A stretch of 64,000 nucleotides of DNA from Escherichia phage SHEFM2K. The notes under the pieces are model-generated. The model was not told the DNA's origin. It made no database searches and was given only the letters and a program-made list of their open reading frames with translations. The position numbers and the translations under genes were made by a program. Below are positions 14,436 to 16,383 of this stretch, piece after piece. Every line of letters starts with the position of its first letter. The stretch's first letter is position 1. The stretch is from sequence record PQ390715.1; one strand, 5' to 3'.

Positions 14436-14463
14436 ATTATACGCTTTTTTCAGTACGGTGCAA
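14436..14463 (-). promoter_or_regulatory. Early promoter TTGCAC-N16-TATAAT + leader hairpin
   Basis: Near-consensus hexamers. Confidence 0.5.
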
Positions 14464-14509
14464 GTACTTTCTACAAATACTTTTTAAAATAGTTTTCTTT
14501 CTATATAGG

Positions 14510-14555
14510 AGTACTATTATTCAGTACTATTATTCAGTACTATCATTCAGTACTG
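14510..14555. repeat. Tandem direct repeat, about 3.5 copies of AGTACTAT(T/C)ATTC
   Basis: Read directly. Confidence 0.7.
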
Positions 14556-14766
14556 CAACCATCCAGGGGAACTATCTTTCTATATAGGGGAACTATCTTT
14601 CAGTACTGAATCAACCAAATCACTACTACACCCCATAAAACGGCCTCAGACGCATTCTAACGCATTAATACACCTAAGCTATACATTTGCACCATTCCAA
14701 TCATTCCAGGGCTTTACGGGCCGTTTAAACGCGTTAAATTATTTTCAATTATTTTGTTTTTAGGTA

Positions 14767-14794
14767 TTGACTTGATCCTGAAAAAGCGTATAAT
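14767..14794 (+). promoter_or_regulatory. Plus-strand promoter TTGACT-N16-TATAAT
   Basis: Consensus hexamers; followed by motif M-like sequence. Confidence 0.5.
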
Positions 14795-14981
14795 TACTAC
14801 ATAGACGCGAGAAAGCGGAAACCCCAGAGGGTGCGGAATTACGCCCAAAATTCAAGATATAAAAAAAGGATACACTCCCGCACCCTAGCAGGTAAACGCA
14901 CTTTCTCAGTACTGAAATATAGTACCATAGTCCGGCCCAGGATGGCAAGCAAATTAATTAAAACTTTTTTCATCCAGGGTA

Positions 14982-15009
14982 TTGCTTTATTTTTCCAGTA
15001 CTGTATAAT
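14982..15009 (+). promoter_or_regulatory. Plus-strand promoter TTGCTT-N16-TATAAT
   Basis: Consensus -10 with AGTACTG just upstream. Confidence 0.45.
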
Positions 15010-15106
15010 AGTTCCATCAAGTCGAGAAAGACTCAAGCCCACCGGGTGCATAGTTACGCCCAAAATTCAGTACTGAAAAAATTTTTAAAAATATCCGGCC
15101 AGGTCG

Positions 15107-15135
15107 TTGACATTGCCCCCAGTTTATAAGATAAT
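15107..15135 (+). promoter_or_regulatory. Plus-strand promoter TTGACA-N17-GATAAT
   Basis: Consensus -35, near-consensus -10. Confidence 0.45.
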
Positions 15136-15989
15136 GATTCCAGATTCAGAAAAATCTAACTACAGATACTGCGGGGAAACTATCCCCACGCGGTAGGGGA
15201 ACTATTGGAAAAACAAAATAAAATTTTGATTTAGCCGTCTATACTTCCAGCCATCCAGAAATCTAGCCGTTTAGCCGTCTAGATGGATAGCCATCTTTAC
15301 TTCCAGACTTCTGGAGGGCTAGACATATCTACGTCCAAAATCCATCCAGGGTAACTACACCCAAAATCCGTCAGTACTATACCATAGATCTATCTTTTGA
15401 AAGGGAGTATTCAGTACTGCCATCATAGCCCTCACTATGTTACCCTAGGAGGATGAAGACTATCATGTAGTACTGAATACTGTTAGAGGGAATCCACCAG
15501 CTTGTGCTGGTGGCATAATGCTTTAGATTAAAATCAGTACTGACACCATTCTGTTAATATCAGTACTGTTATTACAATTTTCATATGAGGTTCAAAAAGA
15601 TGTACCACCACAGGAGGAACTATCTTTTCTGTACTGTCTCACGACAGGAGGTAGAGTAAATGAATTGTTCGCAGCAACTCATCTCTCTATGTAGAACATT
15701 ATACAGTACTGAATCATAATGTCAATAACTTTCTTTCACCATTCAGTACTGATATTCTTGAGAACTACCCGTCTACAAACATCATTATATCCCACAAATC
15801 ATAAACGTCCCAACGTAAATTTCAACTTTCGAAGATCCAACTTTTATTTCATAGGTACTCCAAAATTTTTAGGATCGAGATTTAGGATGGAGTACTAACC
15901 AACTTTTTGCTGGAGCCTCAAGGGGTAATTGAATTTTACCCCGAAGGGTAAAAGGGTAATTGTAATTAAGGTGAAAGTAATAATTCAGT

Positions 15990-16265
15990 ACTAATCATTG
16001 CGTGATTACTTTTGATTACATTTGATGTAATTTGCAAAATGGAAAAGGAGCTTGGAAACTACAAAGTACGGCAGACTTCCTCTGCCTACTTAGTGGCATA
16101 TCGACACCTTCAGTACTGAATACTTTTGGGGCAGTACTGAATCCTTCCCTAGCATTCTTGAGTAATCTTGTCTATAATAATCAGTACTGAATCATATATA
16201 ATCATTCTGTGATTCTACGGTGCTCATATAAATGTTTATATATGATTACTTATGACTACCTATGA
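15990..16265. repeat. Cluster of short iteron-like repeats (TGATTAC x about 5; GGGTAATTG(A/T)AATT x2; CAGTACTGAAT x several)
   Basis: Read directly. Confidence 0.5.
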
Positions 16266-16383
16266 TTACGGGGTTTAGCCTGGGGAGAATCCTAGTGATC
16301 GCATTTGTCCAGGCTGAATTTTAACAATTCGCCTGTACATAAAGGTTGTTCACTAGGAGCTTCCCCTGTCTCTATGTGTTTAA

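Follow-up and report, generated by a model that had tools for sequence, protein, structure and literature searches.

Long terminal repeats are common in jumbo phages, and their edges have barely been described outside T5. T7 has a terminal repeat of 160 bp with arrays of 7-bp repeats beside it; its early promoters A1-A3 lie just inside the leading end, and transcription towards the junction is required for maturation. In T5 the repeat occupies 1-10,139 and there is a non-coding stretch from 8,658 to 10,855. Repeat Region 3 of T5 lies at the inner edge of this long repeat, which bears the pre-early genes (Wang 2005; Davison, bioRxiv 10.1101/866236). In PA5oct, a related jumbo phage that uses the host RNA polymerase, RNA-Seq showed that two non-coding RNAs in the terminal repeat (ncRNA001 and ncRNA002) make up 1-5% of the phage reads and are highly expressed all through infection; they were described by the authors as having no sequence similarity to other phages (PMC7318152).

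The DNA analysed here (the window, 64,000 nucleotides of Escherichia phage SHEFM2K) is from an Asteriusvirus, a jumbo coliphage of the 121Q/PBECO4/G17 type. The terminal repeat of G17 is exact (1-20,668 = 350,150-370,817, 100% identity, length 20,668 bp) and is also visible as a doubling of the read coverage. Four related records terminate at one and the same base, which corresponds to 16090|16091 of the window, and the termini of one of these phages, fEgEco12, have been confirmed experimentally by PhageTerm and restriction digests. The identity of the four record ends, together with the retention of ACT|TAGTGGCATATC in two genera, indicates a fixed physical end at a conserved sequence; in the Alcyoneusvirus phages Muenster and RaK2 the cut has the same position relative to TAGTGGCATATC. 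The end of our phage was mapped via relatives that are 92-96% identical in the region. By this comparison 16090|16091 maps to the inner boundary of a direct terminal repeat (DTR) of ~20.7-21 kb and to the physical right end of the packaged chromosome, so that 14438-16090 is the last 1.65 kb of the DTR and 16091-16383 (0.29 kb) is unique DNA. An exact 21-mer of the terminus was searched in IMG/VR and the only match was 121Q itself. A sequence-only reading of this DNA had described an ORF-free, repeat-dense region with promoters, which is correct, but had overlooked the physical genome end and the repeat boundary. Taken together, the data suggest that the region is probably non-coding control DNA that occupies the inner (right) edge of the ~21-kb DTR, and the description that follows is a base-level map of one terminal-repeat edge.

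In this position the region is similar to Repeat Region 3 of T5. Both are ORF-free, 1.2-2.2 kb long and dense in repeats and palindromes, both lie at the inner edge of a long terminal repeat and both carry sites for a host DNA-binding protein (DnaA boxes in T5, predicted metbox-like units here). The boundary is overrun by 293 bp here and by 270 bp in T5, and in the T5-like vibriophage Pontus the gene gap overruns its own repeat boundary by 331 bp. T5 also has correctly oriented Chi sites within ~1.5-2.1 kb of its repeat boundary. The likeness is chiefly one of layout: a database-wide sequence search gave no T5 match, and a direct comparison with Repeat Region 3 gave one weak match only (45 nt, 80%, E = 8e-4 in a 2.2 x 2.3 kb search). 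DnaA boxes, T5 DRD repeats and a known nick site are all lacking here, in contrast with T5; in their place are metbox-like repeats, AGTACT palindromes and units of a sigma70 promoter with a predicted RNA. Moreover, ours is an unrelated 350-kb myovirus, for which two-step injection is not known.

The absence of coding function was borne out. No conserved ORF is present in 14381/14438-16383, and the curated relatives phAPEC6, G17 and 121Q have no CDS annotated in the region. According to the phAPEC6 and 121Q annotations the left neighbour gene probably starts at ~14380, which gives a gene gap of ~2.0 kb. Each ORF of at least 30 aa within the region is interrupted, by a stop or by a frameshift, in one or more of five relatives, the sole exception being 16305-16400, which overlaps the flanking gene and of which only 22 nt can be aligned in G17; start codons are mostly TTG or GTG. 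Two micro-ORFs preceded by SD sequences (15585-15719) are disrupted in CMSTMSU and EJP2. Coding function was rejected because no ORF of at least 30 aa is convincingly conserved in the five relatives and the micro-ORFs are broken too. Several automated records place spurious 'hypothetical proteins' in the region, so the map should be useful for annotation. A tRNA/tmRNA search returned none, and IHF sites were absent or at chance level. The region is nevertheless constrained. Its conservation is that of the neighbouring genes, with an identity of 0.85-0.97 across most of 14630-15880 (Repeat Region 3 of T5, by comparison, is conserved better than many adjacent ORFs), and just past the cut conservation drops to 0.35-0.6. 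It is built of modules that are common to other genera of Rak2-like jumbo phages.

The chromosome end itself (16064-16102) is marked by an 11-bp terminal hairpin at 16064-16091 (-12.8 kcal/mol, z = -4.95), and the cut falls between 16090 and 16091 (...GGCAGACTTCCTCTGCCTACT | TAGTGGCATATC...). Inside the end, 15921-16036 holds a hairpin GGGGTAA..TTACCCC, GGGTAA repeats (15944-15959) and two TGATTAC units in 10-bp phase (at 16003 and 16013, within 16003-16026). Outside it, the first 0.28 kb of unique DNA (16103-16383) has three (T/G)CAGTACTGAAT palindromes (16110-16193), the series TGATTAC/TGACTAC/TGATTAC, again in 10-bp phase (16241-16269, with the units at 16243-16269), and a long inverted repeat (16277-16371). 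RaK2 too has dense AGTACT repeats directly outside its cut. Further inside, module F (15847-15915; GGTACTCC-(TTTAGGATCGAGA TTTAGGATGGAG)-TACT, then TTTTTGCTGGAG) is the block best conserved across genera, with 82-93% identity to XbC2, Kaldavass, GAP32 and fENko-Kae01. It lies 54-240 bp from the record start or end in XbC2, fENko-Kae01 and here, where the fENko-Kae01 end is annotated by PhageTerm and that of XbC2 is simply the start of the record. Module F is a candidate site for a phage end-recognition or packaging protein. No motif common to both repeat boundaries was found, so the TGATTAC repeats and module F are candidate terminase recognition elements by their position only. In our working model the concatemer would be cut during packaging at ACT|TAGTGGCATATC, at the foot of the hairpin, and the terminase would be guided by the phased TGATTAC repeats on both sides and by the conserved module F.

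The same TGATTAC repeats had been read as iteron-like, and the region as a candidate replication origin. Such an origin could be of the iteron/DnaA type, or of the T4 type, where the leading strand is primed from an R-loop made by a promoter transcript. The cumulative GC skew does reach a minimum at ~16 kb and is positive to the right of it, where the genes nevertheless remain on the minus strand, there are non-coding promoters with A/T-rich tracts downstream, and the Rak2-like phages are distantly related to T4; additionally, under T4-type recombination-dependent replication a repeat end that invaded the other copy would be expected to start synthesis at the boundary. The turn of the skew, however, coincides with the repeat boundary and with a drop in GC from 38% to 33%, and elsewhere in the window the skew tracks gene orientation. 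The region contains no exact DnaA box (TTWTNCACA), of the kind that T5-like coliphages carry paired in inverted repeats, and boxes with one mismatch occur at 2.6/kb here and at 3.1/kb in the whole window. The TGATTAC 7-mers straddle the cut instead of forming a block of 17-22-bp iterons beside an unwinding element, the neighbours are small hypothetical genes with no initiator gene among them, and the analogous region of T5 is not an origin. The origin reading is therefore without specific support, and we regard it as quite unlikely.

A stable hairpin had also been noted near 15489, and this proved to be present as CCACCAGCttgtGCTGGTGG at 15494-15513 (-15.5 kcal/mol, z = -3.8). Two E. coli Chi sites placed back to back make up the hairpin (CCACCAGC ttgt GCTGGTGG), and the one on the plus strand (15506-15513) faces the right chromosome end from 577 bp away. 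There are 10 Chi sites in the window against 0.59 expected. Within the G17 repeat, nine Chi sites are oriented towards the left end and one towards the right end. In the Klebsiella phage fENko-Kae01 the Chi pair persists, with another loop, at 490-502 bp from the phage end, and in XbC2 a Chi of the correct orientation lies 222 bp from the record end. Chi-rich phages that rely on the host RecBCD have been described (Bobay 2013, PMC3784561; Genome Res 2025, PMC12315714), and the latter study deals with lambdoid phages. Our phage is similar to these in having a strong excess of the host Chi octamer in its genome. It differs in being a virulent jumbo phage with Chi concentrated in the terminal repeat, in the orientation of Chi against each physical end and in the inverted Chi-Chi hairpin 0.6 kb from the end. 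After injection the free right end may be exposed to RecBCD, which would meet a correctly oriented Chi 577 bp inside; at the other chromosome end eight or nine Chi sites would face the enzyme. At Chi, degradation would stop and repeat-by-repeat recombination would be promoted, to give circles or concatemers.

Several promoters lie between the left neighbour gene and the Chi hairpin or just beyond it. A loose sigma70 scan found 12 sites against 13.7 +/- 3.4 in shuffles, which is no excess. The best matches, at 11-12 of 12 positions, have hexamers that are kept in other genera while the spacers differ. At least three plus-strand promoters had been claimed; those at 14767-14794 and 15107-15135 score 11/12 each, and that at 14982-15009 combines a perfect -10 with a -35 that matches at only three of six positions. 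Two minus-strand promoters had been overlooked, at 15725-15698 (a perfect TTGACA-16-TATAAT) and at 14463-14436. The latter (TTGCAC-16-TATAAT), as read from the sequence, is the putative promoter of the first early gene (14018-14380/14437), and its leader contains a 5' stem-loop (GCGGGAAcacTTCCTGC). A paralogous -10 and leader occur at 15683-15704 (repeat D19), and sequence similar to this promoter is found in fENko-Kae01 and GAP32. A search of the literature on promoters in phAPEC6 or RaK2 found nothing. Host RNA polymerase would start at the strong sigma70 promoters, and those on the minus strand would serve the ~54 early genes of the repeat.

The plus-strand promoters each precede a candidate small-RNA unit. 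Unit A1 (14767-14915, plus strand) has the promoter TTGACT-16-TATAAT and a predicted structured transcript of ~115 nt, closed by the helix GGGTGCG / CGCACCC (-32.6 kcal/mol, z = -4.2), and is homologous to sequences in seven other genera or species. For unit A, 90.8% of cells are paired against at most 52% in slid controls, and four of the ten pairs change on both sides; helix 2 is mostly invariant and so is uninformative for or against the structure. Unit A2 (14982-15095, plus strand) is a paralogue of A1, identified by an nhmmer paralogue hit and a pattern search, with the promoter TTGCTT-16-TATAAT. CAGTACTG abuts its -10 and the predicted transcript has the core CCCACCGGGTGC; the tandem order A1-A2 is also seen in RaK2 and Muenster. 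Unit B (15107-15232, plus strand) has the promoter TTGACA-17-GATAAT and a predicted transcript of ~90 nt, which continues into the metbox-like array and contains a hairpin at its 5' side, the hairpin GCGGGGAaactaTCCCCaCGC and CGCGGTAGGGGAACTATTGGAAAAA, a conserved motif. In an 11-sequence alignment from several genera, seven of ten pairs of unit B change on both sides, 85% are paired against 36-44% in slid controls, and none of 500 shuffles reaches the score. G-U pairs in units A and B are compatible with the plus strand only.

The minus-strand unit (15525-15725) begins at the 12/12 promoter 15725-15698, with CAGTACTG next to the -10, and would give an RNA of ~165 nt with four stem-loops (-48.7 kcal/mol, z = -4.5), the last of which (15568-15535) is terminator-like. 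Identity in 15580-15729 is 0.89-0.91 across five relatives and 99% in 121Q. No clear intrinsic terminator was found for A1, A2 or B. A paralogue at 10.9 kb shows a hairpin with a T-run after it. The covariance-model search proposed with the sequence-only reading gave no Rfam match for any unit: in the whole window nothing reached the gathering score, and E-value mode in the region returned only eukaryotic snoRNA and miRNA matches at chance level. Of the 'ncRNA hub' that had been suggested, there remain about four candidate small RNAs, two with covariation support, all of them predicted and outside any Rfam family. Units A and B combine a promoter of their own with a conserved structure that carries compensatory changes, as expected of a small-RNA gene. 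The data thus partly support A1 and B as promoter-plus-transcript units with conserved, covarying hairpins and candidate small-RNA genes, and the third plus-strand unit (A2) and the minus-strand unit look like small-RNA genes. All four, three on the plus strand and one on the minus strand, would yield short structured RNAs.

Like PA5oct, then, this phage would have non-coding RNAs in its long terminal repeat; unlike those of PA5oct, the units here are predicted ones and form a multi-copy family with sigma70 promoters. Indeed the A units, promoter and RNA together, are dispersed across the entire repeat, with eight copies in window 1-16 kb. This dispersal, and the ncRNAs in the PA5oct repeat, would fit a mere cluster of small-RNA genes and early promoters that just happens to lie at the repeat edge, with the end set elsewhere or by headful measuring. 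Such a reading is very improbable, since independent record ends agree to the base, the cut-site sequence is kept in two genera, and module F, the Chi pair and the terminal hairpin hold their distance to the end in several genera. A control region tied to the repeat edge, our preferred reading, also recalls the ends of T7, which are likewise sequence-specific with a direct terminal repeat, have short-period arrays adjoining the repeat boundary, and have strong promoters for the host polymerase that lie within a few hundred bp of one end and are directed inward, with others directed towards the junction. The repeat here is ~130 times longer than that of T7 and the promoters are of the host sigma70 type only, with no phage RNA polymerase. 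A role for transcription in end formation like that in T7 would be pure analogy.

The repeats of the TAGCCGT and CCAGAA type that had been noted proved to be a single 8-bp-periodic array (15233-15336) of 13 in-frame units similar to the metbox of MetJ; 74 of its 104 positions agree with the consensus AGACGTCT, in one frame only. In order, the units are AGCCGTCT ATACTTCC AGCCATCC AGAAATCT AGCCGTTT AGCCGTCT AGATGGAT (units 1-7) and AGCCATCT TTACTTCC AGACTTCT GGAGGGCT AGACATAT CTACGTCC (units 8-13). By the published definition a MetJ operator has two or more 8-bp boxes side by side; every box must reach one quarter of the bit score of the consensus, and the sum must reach the full consensus score, 12.58 bits (PMC3228920). 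Scored with the matrix published for MetJ, the array falls within this definition, with eight contiguous boxes and 57.0 bits, twice the strength of natural operators: the scores are 31.2 for E. coli metJ/metB, 24.9 for metF and at most 20.1 in shuffles. It is the only such site in the 64 kb, and a control scan of 5.4 kb of E. coli returned just the two known operators. The first eight boxes average 7.1 bits against 7.0 for the metJ/metB and metF boxes, and three of the 13 units score near zero. The array is thus like the E. coli MetJ operators in its tandem in-frame 8-bp units, its per-box scores and its agreement with the operator definition (Augustus and Spicer 2011, PMC3228920). It differs in its length (13-26 units in the phages, compared with four scoring boxes each in metJ/metB and metF), in its location in a terminal repeat away from met genes and promoters, and in being richer in C at position 3 (5 of 13 units, compared with ~10% of natural metboxes; PMC3228920). 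The array begins ~90 nt downstream of the promoter B start site, overlaps no promoter and has no met gene nearby. No match was found by blastn against 5,426 E. coli genomes, so the likeness to met operators is at the motif level only.

Relatives have 14-26 units with the 8-bp frame kept, the exception being one 1-bp shift in CMSTMSU. The array was not found in RaK2, Muenster, fENko-Kae01, CBB or T5, and is therefore accessory; an equivalent tandem array sought in RaK2 and fENko-Kae01 was likewise absent. Pontus and pVp-1, which are T5-like, do carry similar arrays at the corresponding position, as does an uncultivated contig with dmp, A1 and A2. In these T5-like phages they sit 0.4-0.6 kb inside the repeat boundary or contig end, and in the window the array sits 0.75-0.86 kb inside. 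MetJ is confined to five gammaproteobacterial orders, Enterobacterales and Vibrionales among them; metJ is present in E. coli K-12, and all hosts involved belong to orders with MetJ. A tblastn search of 50,697 phage records for a phage-encoded MetJ returned only three matches, which are host contamination, and a search of the literature on metboxes in phages found nothing. TrpR was considered as a binder of this CTAG-periodic array and rejected, as its half-site (ACTAG) does not match the array and the MetJ matrix does. A phage protein could also bind the array instead of MetJ.

The arrays in T5-like phages raise the possibility of a T5-type injection stop, in which the repeat would be the first-step-transfer segment and entry would pause here until early proteins had been made, with the metbox array in place of the DnaA boxes. 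The layout is that of the T5 repeat and Repeat Region 3/iss, and the genes of the repeat are all small, of early type and point to the far end, as do T5 dmp, A1 and A2. Two-step transfer, however, has never been reported among Rak2-like phages, several genera of which have no array, and even for T5 the DnaA-box model has no more than the status of a proposal. Were the right end to enter first, this region would instead correspond to the left end of T7. An injection stop is for these reasons unlikely.

Within the preferred reading of a control region at the repeat edge, the 13-unit array may bind host MetJ with its cofactor SAM and so give a protein filament. This would lie ~90 nt beyond promoter B and would separate the early genes from the terminal promoter, and it might serve as a roadblock, as an insulator or as a sink for MetJ. 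A broader proposal, which we offer as tentative and rather unlikely, is that two unrelated lineages, the Rak2-like jumbo myoviruses and the T5-like vibriophages, have placed a SAM-dependent MetJ platform 0.4-0.9 kb inside the boundary as a counterpart of the T5 stop. It might gate DNA entry, read-through from terminal promoters or end processing according to the SAM status of the host, or might soak up MetJ and so de-repress methionine and SAM synthesis. The recurrence of the array at the corresponding position in T5-like vibriophages opens a new approach to the role of the T5-type 'injection stop' region and, if confirmed, would mean that phages employ a metabolic repressor of the host in an architectural or sensing role.

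Finally, the remaining repeats that had been reported to the left of the promoter units were all recovered with TRF and a repeat finder. They lie in a variable tandem-repeat block (14461-14610) with CAAATACTTTCTA (2.8 copies), the 13-bp unit AGTACTATTATTC (3.5 copies, 14510-14554) and GGGGAACTATCTTTC (two copies at 14565-14601 and a third at 15613). Within the terminal repeat no other block is so poorly conserved (identity to five relatives, 0.50-0.67). It is followed by a highly conserved block (14630-14766, 0.90-0.96 identity), which has an inverted repeat AAACGGCC / GGCCGTTT around ~73 nt, two copies of AACGCATT, the nearly palindromic TTTAAACGCGTTAAA and, just ahead of the next promoter unit, a UP-like tract rich in A/T. 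The weak 45-nt match to Repeat Region 3 of T5 belongs to this block. A literature search on the CAGTACTG motif in phages found nothing. AGTACT units are not peculiar to the region: the window has 61 occurrences of CAGTACTG, where 0.9 would be expected, and the density here is still about five times that of the flanking DTR.

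The G17 record is linear and its first 20,668 bp match its last 20,668 bp at 100% identity; its authors observed a redundancy of about 20 kb as doubled coverage. The inner boundary of this repeat lies within a CDS-free gap and maps to 16090/16091 in the window (...GGCAGACTTCCTCTGCCTACT / TAGTGGCATATC...), and the records of fEgEco12, BF17 and WPEC5 begin or stop at the identical base. PhageTerm located the termini of fEgEco12 and gave a direct terminal repeat of 20,993 bp, both of which restriction digests confirmed. The final 1.65 kb of the repeat is therefore 14438-16090, and the unique DNA opens with the 0.29 kb of 16091-16383. 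In a second genus, Alcyoneusvirus, the end of Muenster given by PhageTerm (...ACGGACT/) aligns with ...ACGGACT/TAGTGGCATATC in RaK2, so the two genera have the cut at a common position relative to a conserved 12-mer. The approximately 53 annotated genes in the G17 repeat are all on the minus strand, directed away from the right end. Overall, the region is best viewed as a terminal control region belonging to the long repeat, in which the chromosome cut site is joined to host RNA polymerase sites, RecBCD (Chi) sites, probable MetJ sites and several putative small-RNA genes; its position and anatomy are established, and its functions are inferred.

The cut is at the base of an 11-bp hairpin (16064-16091, z = -4.95), and the fENko-Kae01 end is likewise at a hairpin (7 bp). 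TGATTAC repeats in 10-bp phase flank the cut, at 65-88 bp on its inner side and 152-179 bp on its outer side. Of all the pieces, module F (15847-15915) is the most conserved between genera (82-93% identity); in three lineages its distance from the end or from the start of the record is 54-240 bp. By their position, these elements are candidate terminase or end-binding sites; none of these features is shared with the left repeat boundary.

Megablast finds 14300-16500 at 92-96% identity in some 40 Asteriusvirus jumbo coliphages, including 121Q, PBECO4, phAPEC6, G17, SP27 and fEgEco12 (the 'Rak2-like' group). The homologous 1.9-2.0 kb is without any CDS in the curated records of phAPEC6, G17 and 121Q, and is filled with 6-10 'hypothetical proteins' in some automated records. 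Most ORFs of 30 aa or longer within 14438-16383 have a TTG or GTG start codon, and every one except 16305-16400 is broken by a stop or a frameshifting indel in one or more of five relatives. ORF 16305-16400 extends into the flanking gene, and only 22 nt of it align in G17. Two micro-ORFs preceded by SD sequences (24 and 19 aa, 15585-15719) are also disrupted in CMSTMSU and EJP2. These data bear out the sequence-only reading that the region has no credible ORF, and all the repeats listed there are present. Identity to the five relatives is 0.85-0.97 across most of 14630-15880, comparable with the flanking gene (0.86), is 0.5-0.67 in the variable tandem-repeat block (14480-14630) and drops to 0.35-0.6 immediately beyond the cut. 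A sensitive search also picked up parts of the region in other genera, namely in Klebsiella phages RaK2, K64-1, Muenster and fENko-Kae01, Cronobacter GAP32, Erwinia Kaldavass, 'Xanthomonas' XbC2, Pectobacterium CBB and Salmonella Munch, invariably in the corresponding ORF-poor stretch and, wherever ends are annotated, no more than 1-1.4 kb from the physical end.

It had also been suggested that the region is a replication origin. The one feature that points to this is the cumulative GC-skew minimum at about 16 kb, but the minimum coincides with the repeat boundary and with a fall in GC content from 38% to 33%, and no origin-type motifs were found in the region. An origin is unsupported and unlikely. 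Speculatively, T4-type end-invasion replication would begin at this repeat boundary. The adjoining 16384-21290 holds about 24 tightly packed minus-strand ORFs (59-81 aa, ATG starts) with a C-rich coding strand (plus-strand GC skew +0.2, GC 33%); this skew is opposite to that of all other gene blocks in the window, and the reversal starts at the repeat boundary.

The terminal control region contains several candidate small-RNA units. Modules A1 (14767-14915) and A2 (14982-15095), both on the plus strand, each consist of a sigma70 promoter followed by a predicted structured transcript. In the consensus of twelve aligned module A homologues, a small hairpin shows compensatory changes and the helix GGGTGCG/CGCACCC closes a loop of variable length. 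Pairing is kept in 90.8% of cells compared with at most 52% in slid controls, G-U pairs are compatible with the plus strand only and folding of the single sequence gives z = -4.2. Module B (15107-15232, plus strand) has the promoter TTGACA-17-GATAAT and a predicted transcript with two hairpins that covary strongly (7 of 10 pairs changed on both sides); pairing is 85% of cells compared with 36-44% in slid controls, none of 500 shuffles attains the score, and G-U pairs are again on the plus strand. A minus-strand unit (15725 to about 15530) is predicted to have a perfect promoter and four stem-loops, the last terminator-like (z = -4.5), and this stretch is 99% identical in 121Q despite an overall identity of about 84%. 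The suggestion of an ncRNA hub is partly right. The Rfam search gave no match for any module. Two abundant ncRNAs were found by RNA-Seq within the terminal repeat of the related jumbo phage PA5oct (PMC7318152), which serves as a precedent, rather than as evidence, for RNAs in SHEFM2K.

Module A is a family of eight copies on both strands, all in the repeat part of the window (1-16 kb; none in 16-64 kb), with the layout sigma70 promoter, about 30 nt, then CCCA(N2-3)GGGTGC. Besides A1 and A2 these are at approximately 2630-2780, 4640-4780, 6300-6450 and 12860-13000 on the minus strand and 10860-10990 and 12810-12960 on the plus strand. The pair at 12.8-13.0 kb is overlapping and convergent, and the 10.9-kb copy ends in a hairpin and then a T-run.

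A loose scan for sigma70 promoters gave no enrichment (12 sites compared with 13.7 in shuffles). The best sites score 11-12/12 and keep their hexamers in other genera with diverged spacers. Two minus-strand promoters had been overlooked, one of which is a perfect TTGACA-16-TATAAT (15725-15698).

The previously noted stable hairpin, CCACCAGC-ttgt-GCTGGTGG, is confirmed by folding and proves to be a pair of E. coli Chi octamers, one per strand. The window has 10 copies of Chi (GCTGGTGG) compared with 0.59 expected (minus strand 863, 2663, 3581, 5043, 9032, 15494, 45188 and 62219; plus strand 15506 and 21507), with 7 of the 10 in the repeat part. Within the terminal repeat the minus strand carries every Chi site but one, in the orientation directed against RecBCD entering at the far (left) physical end. 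The Chi strand that RecBCD recognises is the one with its 3' end at the point of entry, so the plus-strand site at 15506 is correctly oriented for entry at the right end, 577 bp away. In the G17 repeat nine minus-strand sites face the left end, the first 1.36 kb from it; in fENko-Kae01 the Chi pair is retained about 0.5 kb from the end, with another loop sequence, and XbC2 has a correctly oriented site 222 bp from the record end. We found no description in the literature of an end-directed Chi arrangement in a virulent jumbo phage; Chi-rich phages are already known (PMC3784561, PMC12315714). Additionally, the T5 repeat (L020) has plus-strand Chi sites at 8048 and 8610, 2.1 and 1.5 kb inside the right boundary, a pair in the correct orientation for RecBCD from the right physical end.

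The TAGCCGT and CCAGAA repeats are 13 consecutive in-frame 8-mers (15233-15336), which agree with the consensus of the metbox, the operator unit of the E. coli methionine repressor MetJ (AGACGTCT), at 74 of 104 positions; the seven other frames are at background. Using a published half-metbox matrix and operator criteria (PMC3228920), we recovered exactly the two known operators in a 5.4-kb E. coli control region (metJ/metB, 31.2 bits; metF, 24.9 bits). The 64-kb window has one site only, the array, with 8 contiguous boxes and 57.0 bits, compared with at most 20.1 bits in shuffled windows. Relatives have 14-26 units (G17, 17; phAPEC6 and 121Q, 19; EJP2, 26; XbC2, Kaldavass and GAP32, 16) in the same 8-bp frame except for a 1-bp shift in CMSTMSU (two 7-unit runs), and the array is absent in RaK2, Muenster, fENko-Kae01, CBB and T5. 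Compared with natural boxes, the units more frequently have C in place of A at box position 3; three of them have scores close to zero, and the array overlaps no promoter. MetJ is limited to five gammaproteobacterial orders, among them those of the hosts of Rak2-like phages and of T5-like vibriophages, and none of 50,697 phage records encodes a MetJ homologue. Judged from its sequence, the array is probably a site for host MetJ.

The array is the only part of the region with database matches beyond Rak2-like phages. The T5-like vibriophages Pontus (15-17 units, 111.7 bits) and pVp-1 carry one of the same kind. In Pontus (repeat 8,600 bp) it is 468-603 bp inside the inner boundary, within a 1.36-kb non-coding gap that extends 331 bp past the boundary; in pVp-1 it is in the gap adjoining the pre-early module with A2, A1 and dmp. 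An IMG/VR pattern scan gave additional, heterogeneous arrays (9-10 boxes, 85-88 bits) on contigs of about 90-120 kb, and one short contig has dmp-A1-A2 homologues and an array 400 bp from its end. Among the elements of the region, the metbox array that T5-like vibriophages also carry ranks as the most novel and the most testable. The same scan returned extended, almost perfect 8-bp tandem arrays on unrelated contigs of viruses ((GGATGGCT)n in L026 and L035; (AGATGTCY)n, 36 units, in L039); roughly half of these arrays lie no more than 1 kb from one end of the retrieved locus. Contig 3300008271_000012 has arrays at both ends (L024, L036), suggesting repeat-associated ends.

[quoted passage not shown] The layouts agree point for point. 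There is no significant homology and the SHEFM2K region has no DnaA boxes, so it is an analogue rather than a member. The ends of T7 resemble the region in three respects: the cut is sequence-specific, arrays of short-period repeats adjoin the terminal repeat, and strong host promoters lie a short way inside one end.

Finally, the palindrome AGTACT, whose core may equal that of the E. coli SlmA site, is 13-27-fold over-represented in all Rak2-like phages sampled (the window and the RaK2, Muenster, GAP32, CBB, XbC2, Kaldavass and fENko-Kae01 loci) and is absent from the T5 and Pontus loci. The window has 277 copies compared with 21.8 expected (61 compared with 0.9 for CAGTACTG); their density is 6-11 per kb within the terminal repeat and falls to about 3 per kb outside it. 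Inside long ORFs all three codon phases are occupied (72/21/38), suggesting selection at the DNA level. Some copies are in the spacer beside the -10 of early promoters and most are elsewhere. G+C-rich stem-loops of the form GGGGAA..TTCCCC follow early promoters of the minus strand at a distance of about 10-20 nt (for example 3700-3716, 6835-6860, 11600-11620 and 14400-14416); they are annotated as terminators (ARNOLD) in G17, and their position fits 5' leader hairpins better. Beyond the repeat, 21291-35853 encodes twelve tandem plus-strand paralogues of about 300-430 aa, labelled RCC1-like 'regulator of chromosome condensation' proteins in relatives.
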